Positions 14,384 through 52,257 of a stretch of DNA of 64,000 nucleotides are shown one piece after another; position 1 is the stretch's first letter, and the number at the start of each line of letters is the position of its first letter. A model generated the notes under the pieces. The model saw only the letters and a list, made by a program, of their open reading frames with translations, was not told the origin of the DNA and ran no database searches. This stretch comes from Deltaproteobacteria bacterium. Its GTDB lineage: Bacteria; Myxococcota_A; UBA9160; UBA6930. The stretch spans positions 155 through 64,154 of the forward strand of contig JAJDAQ010000054.1 of the NCBI GenBank assembly GCA_029261815.1, read 5' to 3'. The position numbers were made by a program, and so were the translations under genes.

Positions 14384-15073
14384 CTAGCGAGCCAAGTAGG
14401 CCTCGATTTCCGCTTCCCATTCGGCCGGCCGGAAAAACATCGGTCCCATGCCGCCCTTGTAGACGACCTCGCCGCCCTTGCCGATGAGGTACAGGCGCTC
14501 GGGCATGGCCGCGTAGTCCTTGGCCACGGCGTCGTCCATCTCGTCGACGAGCGCCGGCATCTCGAGCGCCAGTTTCAGCATGCAGGCCTGGCCTGTCTCG
14601 ACACGCTCGTCCATGGATTGGTGCTGCTGGAAGAGCACGGCGTCCTGCTCGTTCTCCTTGACCTGCCAACCGTCGGTCGGATGGATCTCGCGCAGGTAGA
14701 CGACGTAGAAATCGACCTGATCGTGGTACGCCTGATAGATGCGATTGAGGGTCCCAGCCTGGGCCCTGAAAGGCGGTCAGGTGTAGGAACCAAAGATCAG
14801 CGCCACCGGGCGCTCTGCAAAGCGCTCGGACAGGCACAGGCGCTCACCGTCGCCGCCGCCCTGGCCGGGCAGGAACGGAAGCTCGAAGTCCCGTGCCGGC
14901 TCGCCTTGCTGGACCGAGGTCGCTTCGAGCGGAATCAGCTCAGCCACTGTCTCGGCGGCCTTGGGATGAGACATTGCCGCCTCGAGATCCGCTTTGGAGA
15001 GGCCCTGCATTTCGCCGTCGGAGACCTGATCGAGGATTCCGGCCTTTCGAGCTTCGAAGTCATCGGTCGCCAC
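14384..15073 (-). CDS. iodothyronine deiodinase-like thioredoxin-fold selenoprotein (in-frame TGA = Sec at codon 99)
   Basis: Track ORFs 14777..15124(-) and 14384..14638(-) are in the same frame, separated only by TGA at 14779-14777. Hand translation across the gap gives no other stop: LIFGSYT-U-PPFRAQAGTLNRIYQAYHDQVDFYVVYLREIHPTDGWQV...MPERLYLIGKGGEVVYKGGMGP. This matches deiodinase motifs FGSxT-U-PPF, VYIxEAHPSDGW and PERLYxI...YKG..GP. The GTG start at 15073 lies 7 nt after AAGGAGG. Confidence 0.8.
14748..14767 (-). promoter_or_regulatory. candidate bacterial SECIS hairpin
   Basis: The RNA 9 nt downstream of the UGA reads AGGGCCCAGGCUGGGACCCU. It folds as an AGGG/CCCU lower stem, one bulged A, a CCC/GGG upper stem and an apical loop AGGCU containing GG. 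The apical loop begins about 16 nt after the UGA. Confidence 0.45.
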
Positions 15074-15215
15074 GGCAGAGCCTCCTTGAGCGTGTGCCCT
15101 CAACGCTAGCGCGCCGCACCGCACCCCTCACGCCAGGGCTCCGGATGGTCGATGACGATCCTGCTGGGCCTGCCCGACCCCGCGCGCGTCGGCTCAGGCG
15201 GGAGAACACCACAGC

Positions 15216-17519: not shown

Positions 17520-19553
17520 TCAGCGCTCTCGACGCGGCAAGATGCTCGAGATCATCCAGCGATCGCCACCCTGATGGATCACGGTCGCCGTCATCTTCGA
17601 TCGTTGTTCTCCGCTTCGCATCAGGCAGCTCGGCCCGGAGAAACGCAGACGCTGATCGAAATGGACGTAGACCATGCCGGGCGTCGTCTCGACACCCACT
17701 TCGGCGACCTGCAGATCGACCTCATTCGCGCACTCGAACAAGTCCTTCATCGAGTCGCGTTGTTGCGGGTTCATTGCCCAGACGCCTTCGAGTCGGCCGA
17801 AGTCTCGGCCGGAATAGGCTTCCTGGTAACGCTGCAGGATGGCGCGTCCCGCTTCGCCGGGATCGTTCAGGTCCGTCTCCGTACCGACGACGATCACAGG
17901 CCGCTTCGTATCCTTCTGGGCCTTCCAATGCGCCACTTGCCGAGTGGCCTTCTTGCGCCACTCATCGTCCTTGCGCGAGTGGGGATTGTCGGTGGAGTAC
18001 GCGTCCAGGAACTGCTGCCAGATCCCGGCCTTCACGCTCGAGGGCAAACCGCGTCCCTCATGACTCTTTGCTTCCGCAAAGACCTCACCCATCTCCTTGT
18101 CCCGTTCTTCCCAATGCCGCAGTTCGAGCTGCACGATCTGTTGCCGGTCGAGGGCCGTCACACGTTCACCGTCGTCGGTGGTATTCCAGTGCGCCACTCG
18201 CTCGGCGGCCTTCCGGCGCATCACGTCATCGACGTCCGTTCCGAGGATGTCGTTGCTGAACGTGTCGATGAAGCGTTGCCACATGGACGCCTTCACCGCG
18301 GCCGGCAGATCCCGCGCCTCGGTCTTGCGGCCGTCGCTGAACGCGACCTCCATCCGCTCGACGCCTTGTTCGCGCCGCTGGCGCGAAGCGTCCAGCAGAT
18401 CCTCGATGTCGAAGTTCGGGTCCTCCCATGACGAGGCCTTTCCCTGCCAGTGCTTGACCCTGGCCAGCGCCTCCTTGCGCAGGGTGTCGTCTTCCTTCGT
18501 ATGCGGATTGTTCTGTTCGTAGAGATCGAGGAAGCGCTGCCAGGCGATCACCTTGAGGTCGGGCGGATTGTTCGCGGCCTCATAGCTACGGGCCTGGGCC
18601 GCTTGGTGCTTCATGTCCTCCAGGCGAGCGGTCCAACGTCGGCGTCCTTGCGCCGACAGATCATCGAGCTGCATCCCCGGAGCACTCACGACCCCACGGC
18701 GAAAATAGAACTCGCCAGTGACGGAGGTATCGAACGAAGGGCGTTGGTCTCCCGAAGTCGCGCGGCCAACGTCCTTCATGACGTCGAGGAAGACCTCGTG
18801 CAGTTCGAGGCCTGGCTCTGCCAGCGTCTTGAGCAGATGGGTCGTGTAGAGACCGTTCTTGCCGTCGCCGTCGGCGGCGACCGAACCCGGCGAAGTCGCG
18901 TAGGCCACCAGCGTACCGTGGGGAGCCGGCGTGGGCGCCAGGCCGTCGGAGGCCGTACTGCGCCAGAGGCTCCGAAACGGATTGTTCCGGCAGGCATCGA
19001 GAATGACGATGTTGAGCCGGTTGCGGGCCGACGCGAACTCGTCCAGCACGCGCCCGAGTTCCACCGCCTTGTAGCGGACGTCGTTCTTCGCCTTGATCTG
19101 CCGGTCCGCGGCGATCGGGATCAGGTAGTTGGTGTTCTCGACCTGGACGCCGTGCCCGGCATAGTAGAAGAGGCCGACGCCTCCCTTCTTGAGCTTCTTG
19201 CCGAACGCCCGGATCGCATTCTCCATGTCCTCCTGGTCGGCGTTCGTCGCGAGCACCACCTCGAAGTCCAGTTTGCGGAGAACTGCGGCGATGCTCTTGG
19301 CATCGTTGACCGGGTTCGCCAGCGGACTCGTCGCGTAGCGACCGTTGCCGATCACGAGTGCGACGCGCTGCTCATCCTCGGCGCCATCGGCGTCCGCGGT
19401 CACGCGCACACCCCGATCATCGCGATCGAGCCAGCTCTCGGCGTGGACCGCCCCGCTCGTCGTCCCCACCACGGGCGCCAGTGCGAGCACCAGCATGGTT
19501 GCCGCGATCCTCGGCAGCGCTCGGAGACATCGGCGAGGGTCCGGGACGTTCAT
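17520..19553 (-). CDS. secreted caspase-family (peptidase C14) protein with three internal repeats and a C-terminal NTF2/SnoaL-like region
   Basis: ORF 17520..19589(-). The start is ATG 19553 (MNVPDPRR...), followed by signal peptide IAATMLVLALAPVVGTTSGAVHA. The His/Cys dyad motifs are FYYAGHG and VILDACRNNP. Three repeats of about 66 aa end in WQ(R/Q)F(L/I)D...RK.A..(R/Q)V.HW. Confidence 0.85.
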   Translation of the reverse strand: MNVPDPRRCLRALPRIAATMLVLALAPVVGTTSGAVHAESWLDRDDRGVRVTADADGAEDEQRVALVIGNGRYATSPLANPVNDAKSIAAVLRKLDFEVVLATNADQEDMENAIRAFGKKLKKGGVGLFYYAGHGVQVENTNYLIPIAADRQIKAKNDVRYKAVELGRVLDEFASARNRLNIVILDACRNNPFRSLWRSTASDGLAPTPAPHGTLVAYATSPGSVAADGDGKNGLYTTHLLKTLAEPGLELHEVFLDVMKDVGRATSGDQRPSFDTSVTGEFYFRRGVVSAPGMQLDDLSAQGRRRWTARLEDMKHQAAQARSYEAANNPPDLKVIAWQRFLDLYEQNNPHTKEDDTLRKEALARVKHWQGKASSWEDPNFDIEDLLDASRQRREQGVERMEVAFSDGRKTEARDLPAAVKASMWQRFIDTFSNDILGTDVDDVMRRKAAERVAHWNTTDDGERVTALDRQQIVQLELRHWEERDKEMGEVFAEAKSHEGRGLPSSVKAGIWQQFLDAYSTDNPHSRKDDEWRKKATRQVAHWKAQKDTKRPVIVVGTETDLNDPGEAGRAILQRYQEAYSGRDFGRLEGVWAMNPQQRDSMKDLFECANEVDLQVAEVGVETTPGMVYVHFDQRLRFSGPSCLMRSGEQRSKMTATVIHQGGDRWMISSILPRRER

Positions 19554-19628
19554 GGCGTTCTTCCTGCGAGCCATTCTTGATCGGTCCAATGGCCGGGCTT
19601 CAGGATACCCAATCCTTCCCTGGGGGGA

Positions 19629-20324: not shown

Positions 20325-20869
20325 CGACCTTCCTCCTGCGCGTCCGACGGGGCCACGATTTCCACGTGGGTGTCGGCCGCTTTGATGAGCCACTCGCCAT
20401 CGGGCGTCTGGATCGCTTCTCCGGATCCAGCCGCGCTGAGGCGCGTCGCGCCGGCGAGCCGTTCCACCTGGCCTTGCGGCGCCCCGCGGCGCGATGCCAG
20501 CTGGGTATAGTCGGAGCGCCGTCCTGAATTGACCTCGTCGACCAGGGCGCGATCCGTCGGTGCGACTGATCGAGGCGTCACATCGAGATAGCCGTCGGCT
20601 CGCTCGCCCACCGCGCCCGCCTGCTTGGCGCGGGCGAGCCGCTGGGACAGCGTCGCGTCGACGCTGCGGGTCGACAACGCCGCCTCACCGCGTTCCGAAG
20701 CGAGGGTCTTCCCCAGGTCGCCCTCCAGGGTCACGCGCACTTCATGGTGGAGGTCGATCCGAATCTCGATCGGCTCCGTCGCGATCTTCACCGTCGGTCC
20801 CTGACACCCGCTCGATGCCAGGGACACCAGAGAAAGGCTCAGACACACCGATACCAGCGAGGGCTTCAT
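20321..20869 (-). CDS. fused YnbE-like / YdbL-like (DUF1318) lipoprotein
   Basis: ORF 20321..20977(-). The start is ATG 20869, overlapping the upstream stop (ATGA). The lipobox is SLASSGC. The N-part GCQGPTVKIATEPIEIRIDLHHEVRVTLEGDL resembles E. coli YnbE as I recall it (CTPRIEVAAPKEPITINMNVKIEHEI). The C-part AKQAGAVGERADGYL...VNSGRRSDYTQLA...QTPDGEWLIK fits the DUF1318/YdbL pattern. Confidence 0.65.
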   Translation of the reverse strand: MKPSLVSVCLSLSLVSLASSGCQGPTVKIATEPIEIRIDLHHEVRVTLEGDLGKTLASERGEAALSTRSVDATLSQRLARAKQAGAVGERADGYLDVTPRSVAPTDRALVDEVNSGRRSDYTQLASRRGAPQGQVERLAGATRLSAAGSGEAIQTPDGEWLIKAADTHVEIVAPSDAQEEGR

Positions 20870-22656
20870 CCGGAGGCCGCCTCGGCTTCGAGGTCGGCCG
20901 GCACTTCGTCGAAGAAGATCACGCCCGAGTCGTCGTTGCCTGACACCACGGCCGGTGGCTTTCCACGACGAATCCATGTGATGGTGTAGTCATAGTCGTC
21001 GGTGTCCAGAGGAAGCGTGATCTCGATTTCCTTACCGTCGATCTCGTCGTTCGTCCGCAAGGCGACCTCGCGACTCCGGCGTCCGTCGAAGAAGTCGTAC
21101 TCGACGAGGACCGAGACCGCGCGAACGTCCTGCTCCTTGAGTAGCTCCGCATTGCCGACCAGCTCGACGGTGCTTCGTCGGTAGGGTGCAAAGAGATCGA
21201 TCATGTTGGTTTCGGTCGTCGTCCAGTCCGTCTCGAGCAGCCCGCCGCCCTTGAAGCTCCAGCGCGTCCGATAGTCGTACTGGAGCCACGCGTCGCGGTC
21301 GGCGTCGCCGTTCCAGCCGTAGATCATCCGGAAATCACGGCTCTCCTGATTGAAGGTGTTTCGGTCAACGACCACTTCCTCGAGCGTTTGCGCGCCGTTC
21401 TCGTGGCGCTTGCGCATCGTCACCGTCACGCTGTTGATGTACTTGTCAAACTCGGGAAGGATCGCGCCGTCGATCCCCACGTGGACCTCGCGCTGTTGAT
21501 AGGCAGGGCTCCCGATATTGACCGTGCGAAACCGGTTGCCATCCTCGCCATAGCGACGGTAGAGATCCCCGATGTTGGCGACCATTGTGACATAACGATC
21601 AGCGGGCTCCTGGTGGTTCAGGCTCATCGTGGTCGTGCCCGACTTCTTCAGTTCCTTCTTCTCGTAGTGAAAGGAAGCGCCGAGGTACATCGCGGAACCT
21701 CGCGCATCCCCGGTGGCGGCCTGCTTGACGAGCGGGTTGCCACTGGCCGCCATCACGCCCGCGATCATGCCCAGCCCTGCGTCGCTCGGCCCCTGCTTCG
21801 GCTTCGGCGGCGGCACCTTCTTGAACATCAGGTCCAGGATCTTCGTCATCGCCTTGTCGAGCAGCGCCTCGCTGCTGTCGTTGGCGCCACGGGTGACCAA
21901 CTGGATGGCGTTGTTCTTGCGCAGCTCGTCGAGCGTCTTGCTCACGTCCGCGTTGATCATCCCGGACAACGCCGAAACGCCACCACCCATCGTCTCGTGT
22001 TTCTGCACCTCGTCCCAGTTGACGATCAGATCTGCTTGATAGGCGTCCGTCAGGCCTGTGAAGGTCATCTCGAACATGATCGAGACGTCGGGCGTCGTCA
22101 TCTTGAAGCTCTCCAGCAGGAGCTTCGAAGACTGGGGATCGATGTCGAACGAGAACGCGACCTCGTTCCCTTCGAAGACCGGCGCGTTGCCCGTCGCTAG
22201 GACGCGGCGCCCGTCCTCTCCCTCGTCAGCCAGGACCGACGAGACCAGGACATAGCGGCCTTCTGTGAAGATGACAGGGCCCCGCAGGATCGCTTCTTCG
22301 TTCTCTGACGCCTGCTTGATTGCCCGCTGGGCCTTCTTGACGACCTCGGGGGGCGTGTCGTAGGTCGCCATCAGTGTGACGATGCCACCGCCCTCTGCGT
22401 CCGTGATCCCCTTGGTCGAGCCCGCGTCGCTAGGCGCATTCTTGACATAGCGGAGAAAGGAGAAGACCGGCTCGCCATTCTCGTCCTGAGCCAGCCGGGC
22501 GCTCTGCGGAATGTAGTACCAGGCATTGGGATCCGAGGCCGATGGGAACACCCAGAGATTCTCGACGTACGCACCACCTTCGAGACTGACCTGCTGCGCT
22601 TGCAAAGGAGCCGCGACCAGCAGCATGGCGACGAGCAACCAGGGGATTCTCTGCAT
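20866..22656 (-). CDS. secreted protein, YYxP-module paralog A (unrecognised family)
   Basis: ORF 20866..22656(-). The signal peptide is MQRIPWLLVAMLLVAAPLQA. N-module: WVFPSASDPNAWYYIPQ, FSFLRYV, GGGIV, GPVIFTEGRY, ATGNAPVFEG. C-module: FRTVNIG..QQREVHVGIDG, YINSVTVTMRKRH, FRMIYGWNGDADRDAWLQYDYRTRWSFKGGG. Ends in an acidic tail. Alignable end to end with paralog B. Confidence 0.85.
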   Translation of the reverse strand: MQRIPWLLVAMLLVAAPLQAQQVSLEGGAYVENLWVFPSASDPNAWYYIPQSARLAQDENGEPVFSFLRYVKNAPSDAGSTKGITDAEGGGIVTLMATYDTPPEVVKKAQRAIKQASENEEAILRGPVIFTEGRYVLVSSVLADEGEDGRRVLATGNAPVFEGNEVAFSFDIDPQSSKLLLESFKMTTPDVSIMFEMTFTGLTDAYQADLIVNWDEVQKHETMGGGVSALSGMINADVSKTLDELRKNNAIQLVTRGANDSSEALLDKAMTKILDLMFKKVPPPKPKQGPSDAGLGMIAGVMAASGNPLVKQAATGDARGSAMYLGASFHYEKKELKKSGTTTMSLNHQEPADRYVTMVANIGDLYRRYGEDGNRFRTVNIGSPAYQQREVHVGIDGAILPEFDKYINSVTVTMRKRHENGAQTLEEVVVDRNTFNQESRDFRMIYGWNGDADRDAWLQYDYRTRWSFKGGGLLETDWTTTETNMIDLFAPYRRSTVELVGNAELLKEQDVRAVSVLVEYDFFDGRRSREVALRTNDEIDGKEIEITLPLDTDDYDYTITWIRRGKPPAVVSGNDDSGVIFFDEVPADLEAEAASG

Positions 22657-24461
22657 CAGTTCTTCCCCAACGTGGCGCCAGCCACTTCTTCGCTCGGGGC
22701 CGGCTCCGGAAGCTCGTCGATGAAGATGATGCCGGTGCTGTCGTCGCCCTCTTCAATGACCTTGCCGCCGCGGGAGACGATCCAGGTGATCTTGTAGTGA
22801 TAGGCGTTGGTGTCGTGTGGCAGGGTCAGCTCGAGGGTCTGGTCCTCGATCGGTCGGTCGGCTCGGATTCGTAGCTTGTCGGTCTTTCTGCCCTCGAAGA
22901 ATGGATAGTCGACCTCGACCAGGACGGCGCGAACGCCCTGCTCTACCAAGGCTTCGTGATCGCCGTAGACCTTGACCACCTTTCGATGATATGGCGCATA
23001 CAGATCGATCATGTTCGCTTCGGCGAGCGTCCAGCCGGTTTCGTACTTGCCGCCTCCCTTGAAACTCCAACGCGTCCGGAAGTCGTACTGGAGCCAGGCA
23101 TCGCGGTCGTCGTCGCCCGACCAGCCGTAGATCATGCGGAAGTCGTTGCCCGCCGATTCCTTGAAGGTCTGGTGGTCAACGACCACTTCGCGGACCGTGA
23201 CGTTGCCATCCTGGTGCTGTTTACGGAGCACCGTCGTCACACTGTTGATGTAGGCCTCGAACTCCGGAAGGATCGCGCCGTCGATCCCGACGTGAATCTC
23301 ACGCTGCTTGAAGGCGTCGTCCGCGAGGTTGACGGTCTTGAAGATGTTCGGATCGTCCCCGTATTCCTCCCAGAGATTCCCGACGTTGAACCCGATCGTC
23401 GAAACGCGCGTTACCGAAGACATATGGTTCATGCTGAGCACCGTCTCGCCGCTGGAACGCGTCTCCTTCATCTTGTATCCGGCGCTCACACCCATTCCGG
23501 TGATCGGTTTGCGACCGTAGGCGTCGGTCTTCTTGTCTTTGCCGAAGTTCTGGATGGCGCCGAAGGCGCTGTTGTCACTCTCGTCGCTGCTCTGGTCGAT
23601 CGGGATCGGTTCGAACATCAGCTCGAGGAGCTGGTTGTGGACCTTGTCCAGCAACGCCTCCATGTTGTCGTTCGCACCGCGCGTCTTGAGCTCGACCGAC
23701 TTGTTCTGCATGAGCTCGTCGAACATCATGCCCATATCGCCGCTGAGGCCCGCGTAATAGACGTTGACCTCGGCCTTGACGCCCATCCGCTTGCTCTTGT
23801 GCACGTCGTCCCAGCGAATGATCAGGTCCGCCTCGAACGCATCGGTGACGCCTTCCACGGTCATCTCGAAGATGAGCGAGATATCGGGCGTCGCCATCTT
23901 CAGGCTCTCCATCAGGAGCGTGGCGCGGTCGGGTGGAAGGTCGAATGACAGCGCGATCTGGCTGCCCTCGAGCACGGGCGCGTTGCCGGTCGCAAGGAGA
24001 TGCCCCTCTTCCTCCCCCGTCTCGGTATTCACGATCGACGAGATCAATGCGTAGCGGCCCTCCTTGAAGATCACGGGGCCCATGAGCTTCAGGTCCTCGT
24101 TCTCCGGATCGAGCCTTCGGACAGCCCGCTCGGCCCGCTTTCGCACCTCCTCGGGTACCCCGTACGTGACCAGGAAGTGGAGGATCCCGCCACCTTCCGC
24201 TTCGGTGATGCCCTGACTCGTCGCGCCTTCGCTTGGCTTGTTGATCACATAACGAAGGAACGAGAACTGGGGATCCCCGTTGTCGTCCGGCACGATCCAG
24301 GAGTCGTTCGGAAGGTAGTAGTAGTGGTTCGGATTGGCGGCGGCCGGAAAGACCCAAAGGCCTTCGATCCGAGCTCCCCGGTCGAGCATGATCTGCTGTG
24401 CAGACAACCCGGCCGGGGCGAACACCCATAGGAACAGGGTCGCGAGAATCGTGAAACGCAT
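22656..24461 (-). CDS. secreted protein, YYxP-module paralog B
   Basis: ORF 22656..24497(-). The start is ATG 24461 (MRFTILATLFLWVFAPAGLSA signal peptide). Shares the motifs of A: WVFPAAANPNHYYYLPN, FSFLRYV, GGGILHFLV, GPVIFKEGRY, ATGNAPVLEG, FKTVNL..KQREIHVGIDG, FRMIYGWSGDDDRDAWLQYDFRTRWSFKGGG. Confidence 0.85.
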   Translation of the reverse strand: MRFTILATLFLWVFAPAGLSAQQIMLDRGARIEGLWVFPAAANPNHYYYLPNDSWIVPDDNGDPQFSFLRYVINKPSEGATSQGITEAEGGGILHFLVTYGVPEEVRKRAERAVRRLDPENEDLKLMGPVIFKEGRYALISSIVNTETGEEEGHLLATGNAPVLEGSQIALSFDLPPDRATLLMESLKMATPDISLIFEMTVEGVTDAFEADLIIRWDDVHKSKRMGVKAEVNVYYAGLSGDMGMMFDELMQNKSVELKTRGANDNMEALLDKVHNQLLELMFEPIPIDQSSDESDNSAFGAIQNFGKDKKTDAYGRKPITGMGVSAGYKMKETRSSGETVLSMNHMSSVTRVSTIGFNVGNLWEEYGDDPNIFKTVNLADDAFKQREIHVGIDGAILPEFEAYINSVTTVLRKQHQDGNVTVREVVVDHQTFKESAGNDFRMIYGWSGDDDRDAWLQYDFRTRWSFKGGGKYETGWTLAEANMIDLYAPYHRKVVKVYGDHEALVEQGVRAVLVEVDYPFFEGRKTDKLRIRADRPIEDQTLELTLPHDTNAYHYKITWIVSRGGKVIEEGDDSTGIIFIDELPEPAPSEEVAGATLGKN

Positions 24462-24512
24462 GAATCTGTCACCACCACGGTGTCCCTGCGGCTGCACAGG
24501 AGCACCGGAACA

Positions 24513-26765
24513 TCAGTCCGCCGTAGCGAAGAGCTCCTTGAACTTGTCGAGCACCTTTTCTGCGCCGATCTTGCCCAGCTTGCGAGCCGCTGCCTTCGCC
24601 TGCTCGCGCGGATCACCGGCCACCAGGATATCCTCGGGGAGCGCCGCGTAGACGTAGCGATCGCCAACCCGCGTGGTCCAATCAGTGACCATCCGCCCCT
24701 CGGTCTTGTGGTGGGCGATGAGCCGATACGCGAAGCCTCGGGTTCCGCGATCGACGTAGATCTTCTGACCGACCAGGTCCTCACCTGCCCGCGGCGACAA
24801 GGGGATTACGGTGAATTCTTCCTGTCCGAATAGCGGGTAGTGGAGTTCGACCGTGATCCGGGCGATGTCGCTGTCCGTCATCTGGGCGAGGTCGCCTTCC
24901 ACCTCGACGTACCACTCCTCGATCGGCGGTGAGAGGGTCACCCCCTCGTAAGTGCCTTTGATCCAGCGGGGCCGAGCTGGGAAGAGGTTCCCACCGCGAA
25001 TGCTCCACTGGGTCTGGTACTGGTACATCTCCGGGTTCCGGTCGTCGCCTTGCGCATAGGTCAGCGACGCCATGATCCCGCGGTTGGCCAGGTGATCCGC
25101 ATCGATCGTGACCGCGTCGGTGAAGTCATTGCCCTTGTTGCGTCGCTTCTTCACCTGGACGGTCACGTAGTTGACCATCTCGTCGAACATGTCCTTCGCA
25201 TCGAGGTCCAGGATGAAGCGAAGCTCCCGTTGTTTGAAGAACGGATCGCTCAGGTTCACCGACTGGATACAGCAGGCTTTCCCGCGCACGCTGTTGTACC
25301 AGCTGGCCATGTTGCCCACGACCTGGAAGCGACGCTTGACGGCGAGGCCGGCATCGAGTCGGATCACCTGCTTCTTGGTCGCGTACTTCTCCGACCAGGC
25401 GCTGCGATCGATCGTGTAGTTGACGGTGCCACGTCGACCGAGTTGCTCGGGACGGTTGTCCTCGCCCCCCTCATCTTCGTCGTCACCCCCCATCAGCATC
25501 GAGACGTCTTCGGCCGGCTTCATCATGGAGTTCAGGAAGTACTCCATCATGGCGTCCATGATCTTGGCCGTGTACTCCGAATCCGGGTTGTATCCCTCGA
25601 AGACGAACTCGACCACGCTGTTCTCGACCATGTAGTCGAAGAACGCCTGCGTCTCTTCCTCGCTGACAACGAGTTCGTTGTCGTCGGCGTCCCACTTGCC
25701 GTGCTCGTCGTTCGTGCTCTCGAAGTTGGCCGAGTACTCCTCGGCCGTGATCTGCAGACGGTCCCAGTTGAAGATGATCTCGCCCTTGGCTGCGGGCAGT
25801 TGCACGTTGTATTTGAAGTCGAGCTCCACCGAGAGGTCGGCGATGGACGCGCCCTGCTCCAGGGACGCCAGGAACAGGGCGGCGCCCTTCGCGGTCATGT
25901 TGGCCGCGGCTGCGACCTTTCCGCCGGGCATCGTTGGCGCGTGCCCAGACTGAACCATCGAACGGGTAAAGCCTTCATCGGACAGCGTGGCCGAGATGAT
26001 CCGGAACGAACCCTCATCCTCATCGGCCTCCGAGAGTTCAGCGGCACCAACGAGCACGCCATCGAACGTGCCTTCGGAGTTCGTGACCTTGCAGCTCTTC
26101 TTCACCTGGCGCCGCAGGTCGCGCTCCTGCGCCTGGGTGAGGCGCCACTCCATCAAGAAGTGGAGCAAACCGCCCTGCACACCGCCCTCTTCCTCGCTCT
26201 CGTCCGAGGTGTACTTCACGAACAGGAATTCGGGGTTCCCGTCCTTGCGCTTGGAGAGGCGAAGGCTGTTTCCGGGCGGCAGGTAATAGAAGCACGGTGT
26301 CTTCTTGTGCTCGCGGAAGTCCTTGGCGCCCTGGCTCGTGTACTGCTGGCGAGCTGAAGCTGCCGAATCGCGAAGGGAGCTGCCCATCGCCGCCGACTTC
26401 GTCTCGCCGCTCTCTGTGCCGCCGCTCCGCGTCGCGACCCCACCCTCGAGCGCATCGAGGAACCCCTTCTGGCGATAACCCGAGAGCGCCGACAGCCGAG
26501 GCGTCTCGTCGTCTTCCACGCCTCGTTGCGAGACACAGCTGGTGGTTCCACCGCCAAGCTTGCTCTTGAACTCGCCGTACAGCACGACGTCGGTTCCATC
26601 TCGCAGCTTGACCGTGCACTGATTCGCACCGTCCAGGATCACTGCCGCGGCCGGTGCGGCCGGCAGTGCCAGCAGCAGCCCAAGCACACAGAGAAGCGCT
26701 CGTCGCGCCGAGCTTCGGGAGTCACGGGTCATCGTTCTGCCTTTCATGTCGTCGGTCGTATTCAC
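24513..26765 (-). CDS. secreted protein, YYxP-module paralog C (divergent, longer)
   Basis: ORF 24513..26765(-). The signal peptide is ALLCVLGLLLALPAAPAAA. Motifs: CFYYLPPGNSLRL, EFLFVKY, GGLLHFLM, SGHAPTMPGG, SVNLSDPFFKQRELRFILD, VNYVTVQVKKRR, QYQTQWSIRGG. The start is GTG 26765 (GTGA overlap with the D stop) or ATG 26747/26732. Confidence 0.8.
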   Translation of the reverse strand: MNTTDDMKGRTMTRDSRSSARRALLCVLGLLLALPAAPAAAVILDGANQCTVKLRDGTDVVLYGEFKSKLGGGTTSCVSQRGVEDDETPRLSALSGYRQKGFLDALEGGVATRSGGTESGETKSAAMGSSLRDSAASARQQYTSQGAKDFREHKKTPCFYYLPPGNSLRLSKRKDGNPEFLFVKYTSDESEEEGGVQGGLLHFLMEWRLTQAQERDLRRQVKKSCKVTNSEGTFDGVLVGAAELSEADEDEGSFRIISATLSDEGFTRSMVQSGHAPTMPGGKVAAAANMTAKGAALFLASLEQGASIADLSVELDFKYNVQLPAAKGEIIFNWDRLQITAEEYSANFESTNDEHGKWDADDNELVVSEEETQAFFDYMVENSVVEFVFEGYNPDSEYTAKIMDAMMEYFLNSMMKPAEDVSMLMGGDDEDEGGEDNRPEQLGRRGTVNYTIDRSAWSEKYATKKQVIRLDAGLAVKRRFQVVGNMASWYNSVRGKACCIQSVNLSDPFFKQRELRFILDLDAKDMFDEMVNYVTVQVKKRRNKGNDFTDAVTIDADHLANRGIMASLTYAQGDDRNPEMYQYQTQWSIRGGNLFPARPRWIKGTYEGVTLSPPIEEWYVEVEGDLAQMTDSDIARITVELHYPLFGQEEFTVIPLSPRAGEDLVGQKIYVDRGTRGFAYRLIAHHKTEGRMVTDWTTRVGDRYVYAALPEDILVAGDPREQAKAAARKLGKIGAEKVLDKFKELFATAD

Positions 26766-28615
26766 GAATCGTCCCCATCTGTCGGCGCAGGCTCCGGTAT
26801 TGGCTCCGGTGCGAGTTCTTCGGGTGGGACGAGGTACAAGTAGGTCGAGTCGAGGCCGGCCGTCTCGGCGTGCTCAGCACCCTTTTTCGAGTGCCATGTG
26901 ACACGCCAACCGACGTCCGTGCCGCGGTCATGATATACCGAGACGGTGGTCGTAGGTTCAGCATCTGCGACTCGGAGCGTCGCTTTCCGCTGGAGCTTGG
27001 GCTTTCCCCCGATCGGAACCGCAAAGTCCACGACTGCAGTGCGAATCCCATACTCGGCGAACTGATCGCGATCGGCGTCGATTTCGATGACTTCTTTCTG
27101 GAACGGCGGTGTCAGCGAAATCACCGGGTCTTCGCTCGGGATCCACTTTTCCTCGTCGCGGGGAATGTTCATGGTGGGGCGATCGCGAACGCTCCAGCGC
27201 ACCTGGTACTCGTAGCCGAGCCAGCTGGCATCGTCTTCGCCCAACCGGGGATAGGTGATCGCCTGCATGATCCCACCGTTCTTCACCTCTTCGTGTGTGA
27301 AGACCAGCGATTCGGTCTTGGTCGCTTGCGACCTGTCGGCGTAGACCTTTCGGAAATTCACCGAGACGAAGTTGACGGTGTCCTGGAAGGCGTCGATGTA
27401 GTCGCCATCGACCTGGAAGTGCACATCGCGCTTCTGGAAGGTGGTGTCGTCGAGGTTCACGACGCGGAAGTAACGCTCATCCTCGCCGTACTCCGAGTAG
27501 ATCCCGCCGAGGTTGCCCGACGTATCGAAGGGCACGCGGATGGTTGTTGAACGCGAAAGGTTGAGCGTGAACTCGTTGCGCGAAATGTCCTTGCGGTTCT
27601 TCAGGACGTACTGATTGTCGGAGATGTACTCCTGGTTCCCGGTCCCTGCGAAGAACTTCGCGAAGCCACCGCGTGACTGACGCCCCGCGAGCTGACCGCC
27701 CTCGACCGCCTGTTCCTTCGGCGGTGCCTTCGACCAGCCCATCTCGCTGTCGAACATCAGCGTGGTCAACTTCGTCGTGACGAGGTCCACGATGCCCTGC
27801 ATGTCACCCGAGTCGATCCCGAGGCCCTGGCTTCGGTCCATCACCTCGATGGTGATGTCTCCAGTCTTGACGAGTTCGTCGGTGATGTCGCGGAGCTGGC
27901 GCTTCTTGAAGCCCTTCTGATACGAGAACACGCGGCTGAAGTGCTCGTAGACGACGTCCATCTTCGCATGGATGCGTGCGTTGTAGGCCTTCACCTTGGC
28001 TTCGTAGTAGGCGGTGATCGAAACCGAGACGTCGGACGTGGGCGCATGGAAGGTGTCGAACAAGAGCGTCGCCCCCTCCTGGGAGAGCCTCGCAGCGACG
28101 ACGGCCTTCGAACCCGGCGTCAGCGGCGCGCGCCCCGACGTGATCAGGTTGCGCGTGAAACCACCCTCTTCCGTGTCGGTCAGGGTCGCAGAGACCACAC
28201 GGAAACCACCAAGCCCCTTCTCACCGTCCTCGACCGACTCCATCAGGGGAACCGGGCCGGCGATCCGGGCGCCGCCAATCTCCTTCTGCAACGCCTTCTC
28301 GAGGGACGCCTCCTCTTCGGGGAGGAGGCTGAGCGTCACCAGCGCATGGAAGATTCCACCGCTTTCCGCGTTGCCCGCCCCCACGAACTTGACGCACAGG
28401 AACTCGAGCGTCTCGCCGCCGTCCTTCGTCGCCAGACGTGGGTAGGTCGGCAGGTACCAGTAGAGGTACTCGTCGTCCGCGTCCTGCAGGAGTTGGATGC
28501 CGTTGACGATCATCCGCCCCTCGTCGTACTTCACCAATGCTTCCGTACTGGTTGCACCGCCGGACACCCAGCAGATGGCCAATGCCGTCGCGATCCAGAA
28601 CCTCGAGGGGCTCAT
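26762..28615 (-). CDS. secreted protein, YYxP-module paralog D
   Basis: ORF 26762..28615(-). The ATG follows GAGGAGGAAGG and overlaps the E stop (ATGA). The signal peptide is FWIATALAICWVSGGA. Motifs: EYLYWYLPTYPRL, LEFLCVKF, GGIFHALV, SGRAPLTPGS, FRVVNLDDTTFQKRDVHFQVDG, VNFVSVNFRK, YEYQVRWSVR. Ends in an acidic/Pro tail. Confidence 0.85.
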   Translation of the reverse strand: MSPSRFWIATALAICWVSGGATSTEALVKYDEGRMIVNGIQLLQDADDEYLYWYLPTYPRLATKDGGETLEFLCVKFVGAGNAESGGIFHALVTLSLLPEEEASLEKALQKEIGGARIAGPVPLMESVEDGEKGLGGFRVVSATLTDTEEGGFTRNLITSGRAPLTPGSKAVVAARLSQEGATLLFDTFHAPTSDVSVSITAYYEAKVKAYNARIHAKMDVVYEHFSRVFSYQKGFKKRQLRDITDELVKTGDITIEVMDRSQGLGIDSGDMQGIVDLVTTKLTTLMFDSEMGWSKAPPKEQAVEGGQLAGRQSRGGFAKFFAGTGNQEYISDNQYVLKNRKDISRNEFTLNLSRSTTIRVPFDTSGNLGGIYSEYGEDERYFRVVNLDDTTFQKRDVHFQVDGDYIDAFQDTVNFVSVNFRKVYADRSQATKTESLVFTHEEVKNGGIMQAITYPRLGEDDASWLGYEYQVRWSVRDRPTMNIPRDEEKWIPSEDPVISLTPPFQKEVIEIDADRDQFAEYGIRTAVVDFAVPIGGKPKLQRKATLRVADAEPTTTVSVYHDRGTDVGWRVTWHSKKGAEHAETAGLDSTYLYLVPPEELAPEPIPEPAPTDGDDS

Positions 28616-29898
28616 CCTTCCTCCTCTTCGTCGTCCACTCGTTCGAGCGGTGCCGACGTGATGTCCAGAATCGGAGCCCAGCTACCACGCTCGGTCCAGG
28701 CTCCAGTCGTGGTGACGCCGTCGCGCGCCGCGGTCGTGACCCGGTACCGGTACGGCTTGTCCATTCGGATGGCGACCGGGAAACGGAGCGTTCGGGCATA
28801 AAGGTCCGGTTGGCTGAACAGGAACTTGGCGTCGATCGGAACGCGGCGTCCGCCGACGGCCTCCGCCTCCAACTCGATCTTCGTGTAGAACAGATCCGGG
28901 CGTTGGCGATTGGCGAAGTCGTAGCAATAGACCTTGACCGCCGCGTAGCCGGGCGGCGCCTTCTCGTTGAAGTCGACACGTTCAACGAGTTCCGGCCAAC
29001 GTGCGACATCGATCGAGATCCCGGTCGCCCCCGCACGCACCATCTGGGATTCGACGGGCGCCTCGAAGGTCGCCTCGTCGAGCGAGAGATCGCCGGGCCG
29101 ATCCTTGCCGCGCGCCTTGCGGTCGAGCTTGCGAAGTAGCTTGGCGGCGACGCCGGTGGGTCGATCGTCGGCGATCGGAACGCCCTGGGCCCGTAGGTTC
29201 TCGATCAGGTCTTCTTCGATCTCGGACTCCGTAGACATCGCCGAGACCTGGGCGTGCTCCGCGCTGTGGACACCCTTGCTGAAGAACGCGTACGAGACAC
29301 TCAGCGCCACCTTCCCGCGGTTCATCATCTCGAGCAGGAGCGTAGCCGTGTGCGGGTCCATCGGAACCGTAAACACGCGCTCGCGCCAATAGGCATCTCG
29401 GCTCGTGCGGCCACCCTTCGAGCCGTCAGCTTCGAAATAGCCTTCCTCGACGACCTGGGGTTCGACGCCGCTCTCGCCGATGGGTGCGTAGGCCAGCAAC
29501 GCCTCGAAGCGGCTGATCGGCAACGGGCGAAGCTCGGCGCGCCCGAGGTTCTCGTAGGCGAGCAGTGCGCGGCGGAGGAAGCGAAGCTCGGCCGGTCCCG
29601 GTGCATCCATCCGCATGTGGAAGGTCAGCGTGTTGAGCGCACCGAACTCTCCCTGGTTTCCATAGGCGGCCGTGCCCGTGTAACGCATCTGCAGGAACCG
29701 GACATCGGGGCGCCCCGTCAGGTCGCGCACGATCTCGAGCCCGCCGGGAGCGAAATAGAACAGACGGCTGTCGTCGAAGTCCGGATAGGTGACGAACTTC
29801 CCAATTTGGCGCGGTGCGCTCAGATCCGGCGCGGCCTCGAGCGCCAGTGGCGCCAGAAACAACGGGAGGAGCAAGAGCATCAGGACTGACCGCGGCAT
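28612..29898 (-). CDS. secreted protein, YYxP-module paralog E (short; different C-terminal module)
   Basis: ORF 28612..29976(-). The start is ATG 29898, overlapping the F stop by 1 nt (TGATG). The signal peptide is MPRSVLMLLLLPLFLAPLALEA. The N-module aligns with A-D: TYPDFDDSRLFYFAPGG, VRFLQMRY, ELRPLP, RERVFTVPMDPHTATLLLEMM..VALSVSYAFF. The tail is DDEEEEG. Confidence 0.8.
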   Translation of the reverse strand: MPRSVLMLLLLPLFLAPLALEAAPDLSAPRQIGKFVTYPDFDDSRLFYFAPGGLEIVRDLTGRPDVRFLQMRYTGTAAYGNQGEFGALNTLTFHMRMDAPGPAELRFLRRALLAYENLGRAELRPLPISRFEALLAYAPIGESGVEPQVVEEGYFEADGSKGGRTSRDAYWRERVFTVPMDPHTATLLLEMMNRGKVALSVSYAFFSKGVHSAEHAQVSAMSTESEIEEDLIENLRAQGVPIADDRPTGVAAKLLRKLDRKARGKDRPGDLSLDEATFEAPVESQMVRAGATGISIDVARWPELVERVDFNEKAPPGYAAVKVYCYDFANRQRPDLFYTKIELEAEAVGGRRVPIDAKFLFSQPDLYARTLRFPVAIRMDKPYRYRVTTAARDGVTTTGAWTERGSWAPILDITSAPLERVDDEEEEG

Positions 29899-32009
29899 CA
29901 GGGTTCCGGCTCTCCCAGCGCGGATCTCAGGGAGGCGGAACCGAGCAGGTAGTCGAGCCTTCGTGACTCGAGCCACATCGACTCCCGGATACTCCCGTCA
30001 CGCATCACGATGTCGAGCTTGTACTCGTAGAACGGCTCCTTGGCGTCTCCTCGGTTCATCTCGGCATCGGTCAGGAACAGACGCGCGATCGGAACCTCCT
30101 CGCCATCCTCCTCCAATACGACCGCGGGTCGGGTCAGCACACGCGTGCGCTGTGGGTCGAGGAACTGGGAGCGCACGTGGACCAGGATCTGATGGGCCCC
30201 CGTCGACTCGAAGACGTCGCCCGTGGTGAACACGAGCTGCCGCGTGGAAGGCGGCGGCGGAATGAACTTCTCGGTGAAGACGAGATCGTCGCAGGGCTCG
30301 CAGTCGCCTTCGACCGAATACCGCACCCAGAGCAGCTTGGCCGTTCTGTCGACCCAGCCCGGAACCTGCTCGGCTTGCCAGATCACTTTGTCGCCCGGTG
30401 CGGCGACGGGGTCGCCGAGATCCCATGTCAGGATGACGGGTTGATCCTTGCGCAGCCCGTTGCCATCACTCGGCGAAAGCAGCAGGGCATGCAGGCTGTG
30501 CAGCCGGATCGGATAACGCGAGCCGTTGGTCCAGCCTCCGCGACGATCGAACGGAATGCGACCGAAGGTCTCGGGTTCGGCGACCGCGATCTGCAACGGG
30601 ATGGACCGCGAGAAGCGCGACTCCCCAGCCGCGTGCAACACGACGCTGCCATGGATTCCGGCGTCGGTGCGCAGGAGGCTCTCGACGTTGAGCAGGCGCT
30701 GGATGTCGGTGGCCCAGGAGACATCCATCGAACCGAGCAACCCGGAGATTCCCTGGACGCTGATCTTGTCGGGCGGAATCGTGAACTGGTTCTCGGCACC
30801 CCCAAAGAGTTCGACGTTCGAGCTCGAATCGAGCGGCAGCGGCCGCAGCTCGCGGAAGCGCATGCTGCCGTCGGGGTGGTTGCGACGCAGATACGCGCGC
30901 AAGAGATCCTCGGCGATCCGCAGTTCGGCGAGATTGACCCCGGCGCGCAGACGCGCCGCCATGAAGACTTCGCCGTCCGAGGATTGCTGTCCCGCCATCC
31001 CGTAGATGACCGTCATCGCGTACTGCTGCAGCGGATCCCACTGCAGGTCGTAGCGCTTGGGCGCGTAATAGAAGAGCCCGGTCTGCGGGTTCTCGTCCTG
31101 ATAGACGTGGTGGTCGATCTGCAGGATCTGTCCCTGGTGCAGCTCGATCTGACGATCGACGCGCAACCCCTCGAACAGGTTGATCGCTTGCAGCTGGCTC
31201 GGCCCGCGGATGTCGCGCATCTCGGCCAGCTTTTCGGCCGTGCGTTGCTGGCGCTCCGCGCGCATCTCGCCGATCTCCTCGACCTTCTCGCGCAGGATGT
31301 CGTACACACGACCCTGTTGCTCGACCTCGAGTTGTCGGCGGCGCTCCATGATCTGCATGCGTTCCATGCTCTCGAGGTAGGTCGCAAGCGGATCCGCTGC
31401 AGGCTCGGCGGCCGGAGTGGGCGCCTGCGTCGGATTGGGCGGTACTGGATTGAGGGTCGGCCGGCCGGTGTTAGGCCGGGTGTTGACGTTGTACGCGCCC
31501 ACGGCGGGTGCTGGTTTGTTGTACGTGGTGGTCGTCGGCGGTGGACTCGCCTGGACGGGCACGGCCACTCGCTGGGGAATGATCACGTTGGTCGTCGTGA
31601 CCGCGGTCGAGGGCTTGGCCGACAGACTCTGCGTGTAGACCGTGGCGCTCGGTCGGTAGACCAGCATCCCGGCCGACTGGGTTCGGGAGAGCGAAGTCGT
31701 CGCTAGGAGCTCGGAAGTCGTCGCCCGGCTTCGCACGTCCGGATTTGGGGCTGCTGGAGCCCCGACGAGCAGCTCTGATGCCGTCGCCGGCAACTGGGCG
31801 CTCGCGTCCACGCTCCGCCCCGAGACCAGCTCCCGGGCCAGCCCCACGGCTTCGGGCACGATCACCACGGTCTCCGCGAGGGCGGCGCCCCCGGTGGTCA
31901 GAACCAGCGCAGTCACAGCCAACCACCAGACGGTTGTCAGACGGGCGTCCGGGCGCGCCGACGGGGCCTCCCCCTGGTGTCCGGCTGCGTGCTCGCCCTG
32001 TCGCTCCAT
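29898..32009 (-). CDS. membrane-anchored protein, YYxP-module paralog F (S/T/P-rich stalk plus coiled coil)
   Basis: ORF 29898..32126(-). The start is ATG 32009 (MERQGEH), 5 nt after GGAGGAGGG. Has a TM/signal anchor TTVWWLAVTALVLTTGGAALA, a long S/T/P-rich segment and a charged heptad-like segment MERRRQLEVEQQ...AEKLAEMRD. The shared module then follows: NPQTGLFYYAPKRYDL, ELRPLPL. Confidence 0.8.
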   Translation of the reverse strand: MERQGEHAAGHQGEAPSARPDARLTTVWWLAVTALVLTTGGAALAETVVIVPEAVGLARELVSGRSVDASAQLPATASELLVGAPAAPNPDVRSRATTSELLATTSLSRTQSAGMLVYRPSATVYTQSLSAKPSTAVTTTNVIIPQRVAVPVQASPPPTTTTYNKPAPAVGAYNVNTRPNTGRPTLNPVPPNPTQAPTPAAEPAADPLATYLESMERMQIMERRRQLEVEQQGRVYDILREKVEEIGEMRAERQQRTAEKLAEMRDIRGPSQLQAINLFEGLRVDRQIELHQGQILQIDHHVYQDENPQTGLFYYAPKRYDLQWDPLQQYAMTVIYGMAGQQSSDGEVFMAARLRAGVNLAELRIAEDLLRAYLRRNHPDGSMRFRELRPLPLDSSSNVELFGGAENQFTIPPDKISVQGISGLLGSMDVSWATDIQRLLNVESLLRTDAGIHGSVVLHAAGESRFSRSIPLQIAVAEPETFGRIPFDRRGGWTNGSRYPIRLHSLHALLLSPSDGNGLRKDQPVILTWDLGDPVAAPGDKVIWQAEQVPGWVDRTAKLLWVRYSVEGDCEPCDDLVFTEKFIPPPPSTRQLVFTTGDVFESTGAHQILVHVRSQFLDPQRTRVLTRPAVVLEEDGEEVPIARLFLTDAEMNRGDAKEPFYEYKLDIVMRDGSIRESMWLESRRLDYLLGSASLRSALGEPEP

Positions 32010-32165
32010 CGAGGCCCTCCTCCTGCTCAGCTCGGCCGTGGTGCCAAGAGTGTCCAGATGTTGAAGCCCCGCTTCGATGGCAGCTTGCCGGACCCGAGGC
32101 GAAACCGAACGACGTCCAGGCTGCATGAAAGCGTTTTCCGTGCGCGGCCGCGAGCCCGGGCGAGT

Positions 32166-34856: not shown

Positions 34857-34915
34857 CGATTCGATGCTACACCCTGATGCGATTGCAGGTAAACCACGCT
34901 GGAGGACCGTAACGG

Positions 34916-37650: not shown

Positions 37651-37662
37651 CAGGAGATTCCC

Positions 37663-38931
37663 ATGCTTCGCGCATCCACCGATCCGACTCGTTCGCCCGC
37701 GGGACCCACCGGGCCGCGATCCAGTTTCTTTCGCCGAGCCGCGATCGTGACCATCGTCGCCCTATCCGTCGGCGCCGTTTCGTGCAGGAGCATCGAGAAA
37801 TCGCTGCCGTACCTCGTCGTGGCAGGCGGTGCAATCGCATCGGTCGTGGCGCTCAACTACCTGTCCGACTGCACGAGCGAATGGGCAGTATGCAGCGCCG
37901 ACCCCTTCACCGGCGAAGAAGTGCGCGACCTCGGGTACACCGAACAGGTCCTGATGATGATCGGGACGATCACCACCGTCGGGGGTGCTGCGGCCGATTA
38001 CTGGGTGGAGGCTCGCGAGAAGCAGCGCGAACTCGCGCGCCTCGACGAAGTCGAGCAGCGGGTCGAACAGGAGTACGCCCAACTACAGGGTGGACCGCCG
38101 GTTTCGGCGTGGGGTGCGCCGCCGCAGGCGTCGCCCGGCGCGACCCGCTGGGGCCAGGCGCCGAGCCAGAACCCGGGTTACGGATGGGCCCAGGCCCAGC
38201 CGAACCCGCAGGGAGCACCGCCCTACGGAGGTCCGCCCGGCAGCGGCGCACCGGGCGCGGGTGCGCAGGCAATGCCACCGCAAGCCGGCGGACCGCCGCA
38301 CGGAATGCCCAAGGGCGTCCAGCCGCGGAGCTTCTCGGAACCGATGGCCATCGACACCGCGCTACTCAAACGCGCCGGGAACCAGGCCATTCCGGTTCCG
38401 GACAACGACATCCTGTTCGATGGCATTGGCGAGTCGATCCGGGACGAATTCCGCGTGCTCTTCAGCCCCAACCAGGAAGCCTGGGTCTACGTCGTCGGAA
38501 TCGACGCGGTCGGACGTGCGCAGCCGCTCTACCCCCAACGCTTCCCGGACGACAGCAATCCGATCCGCCCGGGTGAAAAGGTCCTGCTGCCCAGCGGCGA
38601 CGACTGGTACGGGCTCGATCAGTACACGGGGCTCCAGCACGTCTACTTCTATGTCAGCCCGGAACGGGACGAGAACCTGGAGAAGCAATTCGCGGTGCTC
38701 GCGTCGAAGCCGCCGCCCGAACCCTCGCGCGTCAACGGACAGGTGTTCTACGTCGATACGCCGACGGTGCTCCAGTACGGCCGCACGCGAACCAAGGGAC
38801 TGGTCCTGCCGACCGCGGGCTCGGCCCTGCGAATTCCCGGCGACGCGGCCATCGAGATTCCGACGGCCCGGGTCACGGGTACGGTGCCGGGTGAACCCAT
38901 CGTCGCGACCCGGGTCTTCCAGCACCAATAG
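37663..38931 (+). CDS. membrane protein with Gly/Pro/Gln-rich linker and C-terminal DUF4384-like domain
   Basis: ORF 37663..38931(+), with AGGAG upstream. Has hydrophobic helices near the N-terminus and a low-complexity PQ/G-rich linker. The C-terminal AWVYVVGIDAVGRAQPLYPQ...VLLPSGDDWYGLD...HVYFYVSPE is DUF4384-like. Confidence 0.7.
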   Translation: MLRASTDPTRSPAGPTGPRSSFFRRAAIVTIVALSVGAVSCRSIEKSLPYLVVAGGAIASVVALNYLSDCTSEWAVCSADPFTGEEVRDLGYTEQVLMMIGTITTVGGAAADYWVEAREKQRELARLDEVEQRVEQEYAQLQGGPPVSAWGAPPQASPGATRWGQAPSQNPGYGWAQAQPNPQGAPPYGGPPGSGAPGAGAQAMPPQAGGPPHGMPKGVQPRSFSEPMAIDTALLKRAGNQAIPVPDNDILFDGIGESIRDEFRVLFSPNQEAWVYVVGIDAVGRAQPLYPQRFPDDSNPIRPGEKVLLPSGDDWYGLDQYTGLQHVYFYVSPERDENLEKQFAVLASKPPPEPSRVNGQVFYVDTPTVLQYGRTRTKGLVLPTAGSALRIPGDAAIEIPTARVTGTVPGEPIVATRVFQHQ

Positions 38932-38942
38932 GTTCGTCGGCC

Positions 38943-50466: not shown

Positions 50467-50557
50467 ACGCCCAACGCCAAGGGAAATCACCGGTTGACAT
50501 TGCGAATGGCCCAGACATAACATGCCTACCCTTGGGGGGCTTTGCGGAGTCCAGTCG

Positions 50558-52222: not shown

Positions 52223-52257
52223 TCGGATTCTCGACCGCCTCCAAAGGAGCCACCCCC

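Follow-up and report, generated by a model that had tools for sequence, protein, structure and literature searches.

The interval 14384-15073, on the minus strand of a 64,000-nucleotide stretch of DNA from a Deltaproteobacteria bacterium (GenBank assembly GCA_029261815.1, contig JAJDAQ010000054.1), is very probably a selenocysteine (Sec)-encoding gene of the deiodinase-like family. The whole stretch, which originates from a biofilm metagenome, is referred to below as the window (64 kb). A single frame runs from GTG 15073-15071 to TAG 14386-14384, i.e. 229 codons including Sec99, and its sole interruption is the TGA at 14779-14777, codon 99 of 229, lying within FGSYT-U-PPF (peptide FGSYT*PPFRAQ). 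A mechanical list of open reading frames (ORFs) cuts this frame in two, namely 14777-15124 and a piece ending at 14384; translation confirmed that both fragments belong to one frame parted only by the TGA, as the initial annotation had proposed, and the peptides cited there, namely FGSYT*PPF, DFYVVYLREIHPTDGW and MPERLYLIGKGGEVVYKGGMGP, are all found in the read-through translation. No further disabling change is present in the frame, and the GC content at third codon positions (GC3) is at least 0.8 on either side of the TGA. The GTG is the likely start of the gene; AAGGAGG at 15087-15081, as read from the sequence, precedes it with a 7-nt spacer, and tblastn alignments to two homologous loci (L001 and L002) start at about residue 5 of the window protein.

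The status of this TGA codon can be appraised from its distribution among relatives. A scan of species-representative genomes returned 80 loci, from which 75 homologous genes, the window's own counted, could be compared at this column: 65 carry TGA and 10 carry TGC or TGT, i.e. Cys. All 26 close loci covering the column, mostly labelled Myxococcota or Deltaproteobacteria and 57-80% identical, have TGA, and codon 99 is crossed by single tblastn alignments in this same range of identity, with conservation on both sides. More broadly, the TGA forms occur mostly in metagenome-assembled genomes (MAGs) labelled Myxococcota, Chloroflexota, Gammaproteobacteria, Latescibacterota and Planctomycetota. 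Two TGA-containing paralogs were seen side by side and convergent at one locus (L004:3710-4270, minus strand), and two others 3 kb apart on a Latescibacterota chromosome (L046:6055). A protein search gave 95 relatives, the full-length ones carrying Cys at the Sec column; more than half of the 95 are C-terminal pieces of 125-170 amino acids beginning right after this column, a pattern left by gene callers that take the TGA for a stop. At the level of sequence, a column alternating between TGA and Cys amid conserved flanks is the pattern by which selenoprotein genes are usually recognised, and it is incompatible with a pseudogene.

The codon is also genuine and exceptional within its own genomic context. 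Both strands of the 64 kb were scanned for TGA codons flanked on both sides by open, high-GC3 sequence, first with a symmetric window of 150 nt and next with an asymmetric rule of 20/80 codons; both scans returned position 14779 alone, and neither revealed another selenoprotein gene in the window. As many window genes terminate at TGA, the genome has not reassigned this codon. Besides, Logan contigs from four runs belonging to two studies (biofilm and microbial-mat metagenomes) span 14777-14779 with zero differences, and an assembly error is thus ruled out. In runs X1 and X2, the word depth of this contig is ~17x and 6-8x, respectively.

Regarding family membership, searches were performed with the read-through protein bearing Cys at codon 99. 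Residues 86-225 match Pfam PF00837 (T4_deiodinase) with 108.8 bits, to be compared with a gathering cut-off of 27 (E 3.4e-31), and among PDB sequences the protein matches the catalytic cores of mouse Dio3 (4TR3, E 1.4e-23) and Dio2 (9H48, E 1.2e-17). In these alignments, FGSYT-TGA-PPF falls on FGSCT-C-PPF (4TR3) and FGSAT-C-PPF (9H48), both crystallised as Sec-to-Cys constructs, which places the TGA at the deiodinase Sec position exactly where it had been initially annotated. Residues 31-222 further match positions 149-339 of the NCBIfam profile NF038285 ('deiodinase family protein', deiodinase_rel; E 1.2e-54); as the score of 186 bits stays under the curated cut-off of 250 and the first ~148 of the 347 profile positions have no counterpart in the window protein, the latter belongs to a shorter, distinct subgroup. 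Neither PF00578 (AhpC-TSA) nor PF08534 (Redoxin) was matched by the window protein at E <= 0.01; some homologs have weak precomputed matches to these families.

The structure was modelled with AlphaFold on a Cys-form in place of the window protein, namely P0001 (L083:1501-2208), the closest full-length Cys-form with 62-63% identity and TGC at the Sec column. The mean predicted local distance difference test (pLDDT) of the model is 83.7, exceeding 90 across most of the catalytic domain, and its top folds in the PDB by Foldseek are Dio2 (TM-score of 0.78, normalised to the target) and Dio3 (0.73 on the same basis), followed by thiol-disulfide oxidoreductases of the ResA and DsbE types and by the peroxiredoxins AhpE and Bcp. 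The first ~60 residues of P0001 are helical and modelled at low confidence, as is the N-terminal extension of the subgroup, of ~75 residues; the N-terminus of the window protein is acidic, with a predicted helical character. No transmembrane anchor was detected in the window protein (maximum 19-residue Kyte-Doolittle mean of 0.96), which is predicted to be soluble, unlike animal deiodinases.

Downstream of the UGA, RNAfold predicts a hairpin at 14767-14748, ((((((((...)))).)))), made of 8 pairs including an outer A-U, in which one A is bulged and the loop reads GGC, and beginning 9 nt after the UGA. Its conserved core (14766-14750) begins after a 10-nt spacer and comprises 17 nt, with 7 pairs, a G.A mismatch (or bulged A) and, at 14759-14757, an apical GGC loop; this loop is of 3 nt, or of 5 nt when the closing A-U pair is open. 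The hairpin of 7 bp with a bulge and a G-containing loop, 9 nt after the UGA, that had been described initially is thus present, with the amendment that RNAfold gives 8 pairs and that 7 bp applies to the conserved core. In the close clade (27 sequences), the helix pairs columns 14-20 with columns 24-30, numbering from the U of UGA, and 91% of the cells are paired, vs. 16-69% in controls where the 3' partners were slid along. Compensatory changes occur at pairs 16-28 and 17-27, the former being a G.A mismatch in the window and G-U, U-A, C-G or G-C elsewhere; in one sequence (L019), the stem is kept perfect through Ala-to-Leu and Thr-to-Ala replacements and one synonymous change. The same helix was predicted by RNAalifold from the 27 sequences without guidance. 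In a second clade (36 sequences), the hairpin lies four bases further along with a 5-nt loop of the CGUGA type and 88% of the cells paired; 26 cells show double changes there, and the observed covariation score was reached by none of 500 shuffles. As for the 10 Cys-forms from the genome scan, no more than 4 of the 7 core pairs are possible in 8 of them. No family was matched in an Rfam scan of the window. Of note, a TGA form with a bacterial-type hairpin was also met in a MAG labelled Methanosarcinales archaeon (L057, JAIWHF010000042.1, contig coverage of 0.28x), the contig being probably a mis-binned bacterial one.

This arrangement is reminiscent of the selenocysteine insertion sequence (SECIS) of the E. 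coli fdhF type, i.e. a stem-loop located directly 3' of the UGA within the coding sequence, with an unpaired base in the stem and a G in the apical loop; the sequence of the window hairpin is unrelated to it and its assignment as a SECIS is putative. The minimal fdhF element reportedly has a core of ~17 nt positioned 10-11 nt after the UGA, a geometry that the window hairpin fits. Likewise, it fits the features given for bacterial SECIS, namely a small apical loop with a G just downstream of the UGA (PMC1088965). In the proposed mechanism, the UGA at codon 99 would be read as Sec during translation, and the mRNA hairpin (10 nt downstream, 17-nt core, G-containing loop) would act as a bacterial SECIS recruiting SelB with Sec-tRNA(Sec). 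The comparative pattern behind such SECIS-dependent recoding is observed across genomes, and the molecular event is what we infer from it.

Bacterial deiodinase-like selenoproteins were described from the Sargasso Sea in both Sec and Cys forms, with a bacterial SECIS (Zhang, Fomenko & Gladyshev, 2005; PMC1088965), counted again in the GOS data (PMC2398784) and included in later reviews (PMC9312934, PMC13188914). The initial annotation rightly stated that such proteins had been predicted computationally, the predicted family being established since 2005, and its reading of the locus as a deiodinase-like selenoprotein is supported by the PF00837 match, the conservation of the TGA and the covarying hairpin. 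With this family, the window protein shares the homology to PF00837, a UGA at a column where other members have Cys, a hairpin close downstream whose small apical loop contains a G, and an occurrence in marine and environmental bacteria, and no essential difference from it was found. The discoverers of the family expected a role other than thyroid-hormone metabolism, possibly redox (PMC1088965). While the reviews give the motif as 'UxxC' (PMC9312934, PMC13188914), the GOS table lists no redox motif (PMC2398784); all 65 Sec-forms compared here read U-P-P-[FY] with no Cys at +3, in disagreement with the former and in agreement with the latter.

Across these 65 Sec-forms, G95, Y126, H131, D134, G135, R157 and D177 are invariant, and S96, T98, E129, W136, P191, R193, L194, Y195, G210 and P211 nearly so; E129, H131, D134, G135 and W136, all invariant or close to it, belong to the motif at the edge of the deiodinase-specific insertion (Table 1). 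The proton-relay network proposed for Dio2 and Dio3 (PMC11592359) has its equivalents in Ser96, Thr98, Tyr126, Glu129, His131 and His151 of the window protein. Vertebrate Dio1-3 share with it a thioredoxin fold with the Dio-specific insertion, the FGS-x-T-U-PPF active site at the start of helix alpha1, these six relay residues (Ser, Thr, Tyr, Glu and a pair of His), and the P-E-R-L-Y and GG-x-GP motifs. They differ from it in several respects: their N-terminal transmembrane anchor and basic substrate-clamp residue are missing from the window protein, their SECIS is a 3'-UTR (untranslated region) element instead of a coding-region hairpin beside the UGA, and thyroid hormones are not its expected substrates. 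Met209 aligns with Dio3 Arg275, to which a substrate-clamp role is ascribed (PMC11592359), and with Dio2 Lys241, in a column occupied by L, M, R, V or I among the Sec-forms. Devoid of both the membrane anchor and the Arg275 clamp, the window protein is predicted not to be a thyroid-hormone enzyme. Dio3 Cys239 has no counterpart either and Cys164, which sits elsewhere, is conserved instead; found in 64 of the 65 Sec-forms and 4 of the 10 Cys-forms, Cys164 is the obvious candidate for a resolving thiol.

On these grounds, the interval would encode a functional, soluble, 229-residue deiodinase-like selenoprotein with a thioredoxin fold and the deiodinase-specific insertion, in which Sec99 would occupy the catalytic Sec site of animal deiodinases and the network of Ser96, Thr98, Tyr126, Glu129, His131 and His151 would be retained. 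Its selenolate would attack an electrophile, most likely the halogen of a small aromatic halide as in the reductive dehalogenation by Dio, or alternatively a peroxide or a disulfide; Cys164, which is nearly invariant, would then resolve the oxidised selenium, and a cellular thiol system would return it to the reduced state. Marine biofilms, mats, sediments and sponges are rich in natural iodinated and brominated phenolic compounds. It is tentatively suggested, as a possibility open to doubt, that soluble bacterial deiodinase-like selenoproteins are thiol-dependent reductive dehalogenases of such natural iodinated or brominated phenolics, with Cys164 as the resolving thiol.

Several observations weigh against Sec decoding at this locus or against the chemistry just proposed. 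Taken by itself, the hairpin is not statistically unusual in such a GC-rich window, with an energy z-score of -1.08 relative to dinucleotide shuffles and with ~8.3% of the 1358 TGA trinucleotides of the window (65% GC) preceding a fold just as stable in the corresponding 30-nt frame; its designation as a bacterial SECIS, put forward initially from the window alone, becomes convincing only through the other genomes, where it is conserved and covaries in two clades. Nor is the hairpin perfectly tied to the TGA. The close Cys-form in L083 (TGC) keeps it base for base, which points to a Sec-to-Cys change of recent date or to a variant, the coverage of the contig being 3.4x; in a distant Cys-form from Bryobacterales (L080:3108-3155), 6 of the 7 pairs are possible at these columns, which may be a SECIS relic or due to chance. 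Regarding the decoding machinery, none of selA, selB, selC and selD was found in the 64-kb window, where Pfam scans of ~50 ORFs detected no SelA, SelB or SelD domain and a tRNA scan detected no tRNA gene of any kind; a tRNA scan of the flanks of L001-L060 gave no tRNA-Sec, and a motif scan for SelB, SelD and SelA gave nothing at any of the loci. Genome-contig scans with a motif of the SelA pyridoxal phosphate (PLP) site and with a Polyangia SelA query shared, among the matches listed, no assembly with the 80 deiodinase-like loci; among the matches listed as well, selA was seen in several Myxococcota (Archangium, Corallococcus, Pyxidicoccus). As no sel gene lies in the window or beside the homologs, Sec decoding in the source organism is presumptive. 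No RNA run holding the deiodinase-like gene appeared among the matches listed. At the enzymatic level, the second clade has Pro in place of His151, no assay of a bacterial deiodinase-like member was found in the literature searched, and the chemistry is inferred in its entirety.

Among other explanations, the TGA could have arisen by nonsense mutation, or through faulty assembly, in a gene that normally encodes Cys there. The existence of Cys-forms, with the TGC of P0001 just one base away from TGA, and the splitting of the deiodinase-like gene by gene callers would be in line with it; however, TGA is the majority state of the column, including all the close loci covering it, the frame has no other disabling change and keeps its high GC3 on both sides, and the codon is identical in the four runs of two studies. 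The pseudogene envisaged in the initial annotation, where close homologs would all have a sense codon and the locus further lesions, is at odds with what the alignment with Cys-containing homologs (10 Cys vs. 65 TGA) and the intact frame reveal; this explanation is largely refuted already and highly improbable. Equally hard to sustain is the view of two separate small genes, one encoding an N-terminal product of 98 aa that stops at the TGA and the other an independent C-terminal product. The ORF list does show two ORFs, and a consensus scan reports a terminator-like site at 14814-14799, but the latter lies upstream of the TGA within conserved coding sequence, and 2 such sites were found vs. 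0.9 +/- 1.2 expected from shuffles, i.e. chance level; the same consensus scan gave no promoter-like site. Moreover, the first start after the TGA is GTG 14638, 47 codons on, which would drop the invariant YxxExHPxDGW motif, and both the thioredoxin fold and the Dio alignment cross the TGA, making this view exceedingly unlikely.

A suppressor or reassigned tRNA could also decode the UGA as Trp, Gly or Cys, including tRNA-Sec-like tRNAs carrying Cys, which would result in a Cys or Trp enzyme. This would accord with the lack of Sec machinery in the window and with the clear viability of the Cys-forms of the family. In addition, one public record (P0019, L084:410-1093) shows Trp at the Sec column; as its DNA has TGA, this Trp is a gene-calling artefact, the gene having apparently been called with a code where TGA stands for Trp. 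Genome-wide reassignment is excluded by the many window genes ending at TGA and by the single in-frame coding TGA in 64 kb, and a conserved, covarying hairpin at a fixed distance is a requirement of SelB-dependent decoding, which leaves non-Sec decoding very unlikely. The rival to the dehalogenase proposal accepts a genuine selenoprotein and sees in it a peroxiredoxin-like peroxidase or a general thiol-disulfide oxidoreductase without dehalogenase chemistry, a possibility that can be entertained with reserve. The matches of the P0001 model to ResA, DsbE types, AhpE and Bcp after Dio2 and Dio3, the weak AhpC-TSA and Redoxin matches of homologs, the redox role suggested by the original authors (PMC1088965) and the conserved second Cys, which would suit resolution in the manner of 2-Cys peroxiredoxins, all speak for it. 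On the other side, the window protein itself matches neither of these two Pfam families, and the insertion bearing E-x-H-P-x-D-G-W, by which deiodinases are distinguished from peroxiredoxins, shows the highest conservation within the bacterial family.

Table 1. Features of the deiodinase-like locus and its downstream neighbour (window coordinates)
Feature	Coordinates	Strand	Basis
Deiodinase-like selenoprotein coding sequence (predicted), complete	14384..15073	-	One frame with a single internal TGA; Pfam T4_deiodinase E 3.4e-31; Dio3/Dio2 PDB sequence matches
Shine-Dalgarno-like AAGGAGG	15081..15087	-	7 nt upstream of GTG
In-frame TGA, predicted Sec codon (residue 99)	14777..14779	-	TGA in 65/75 and Cys in 10/75 homologous genes; same in four runs
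SECIS-like hairpin	14748..14767	-	RNAfold; RNAalifold (n=27); 91% paired vs. 16-69% in controls; covarying hairpin in second clade
EIHPTDGW, codons 129-136, edge of deiodinase-specific insertion	14666..14689	-	Equivalent to Dio3 Glu200, His202, Trp207; aligned to 4TR3 and 9H48; roles from PMC11592359
Cys164 codon TGC, candidate resolving cysteine	14582..14584	-	Cys in 64/65 Sec-forms; putative role
Cupin gene, ChrR-type, 141 aa	13901..14326	-	ATG 14326, 57 nt after the deiodinase-like stop; Pfam Cupin_7 E 4.4e-27

The cupin gene announced in the initial annotation is indeed found on the same strand, at the distance it had given (Table 1). With no terminator-like site between the two genes, the cupin gene is probably co-transcribed with the deiodinase-like gene in the window. 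Among the 80 loci, this adjacency is restricted to the window and its closest relative (L002), and all-against-all clustering of the flanking ORFs gave no recurrent neighbour gene; the idea of a conserved deiodinase-cupin operon was consequently dropped. In L083, the gene for P0001 adjoins a Rieske ring-hydroxylating oxygenase and a luciferase-like monooxygenase.

The rest of the window holds several other gene sets. Six consecutive large ORFs (~460-790 aa) on the minus strand at 20869-32165, whose coding signal is strong (GC3 ~0.8), have no Pfam match at E <= 1e-4, and the 22-28 kb part of this block has a lower GC of 0.61 and an AT skew of about -0.13; a YdbH-like gene (32169-34928) comes next. 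Three caspase-domain (Peptidase_C14) proteins, one fused to DUF4384 and one to WD40, are encoded as well, with a second DUF4384 protein and a CHASE2 sensor nearby (the whole set at 17523-19589 on the minus strand and at 34913-37141, 55977-58913 and 37651-40304 on the plus strand). At 50498-56034 (plus strand), a two-partner secretion (TPS) pair is encoded, its transporter being of the ShlB/FhaC type with POTRA_2 and its partner, next in order, a protein of 1332 aa that carries a TPS-secretion domain; upstream of the pair are the genes for an OmpA-family protein, an Amidase_2 protein and an M35-like peptidase.

As the family was described in 2005 from ocean metagenomes, the window gene is a well-supported but ordinary member, which adds no new principle to it. 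What it does stress is how systematically public gene calls get this family wrong, over half of its database relatives being deposited as C-terminal fragments that begin past the TGA and one with Trp at the TGA. Called properly, such a gene brings one more selenoprotein into genomes of the marine Myxococcota type and identifies these as users of selenium. Concrete, testable handles on the mechanism are offered by the deiodinase insertion, which hardly varies, and by the conservation of Cys164. Should the dehalogenase proposal be true, it would mean a selenium-based turnover of organohalides operating without corrinoid or flavin and, beyond the bacterial world, the ancestral chemistry from which thyroid-hormone deiodination in animals was recruited.

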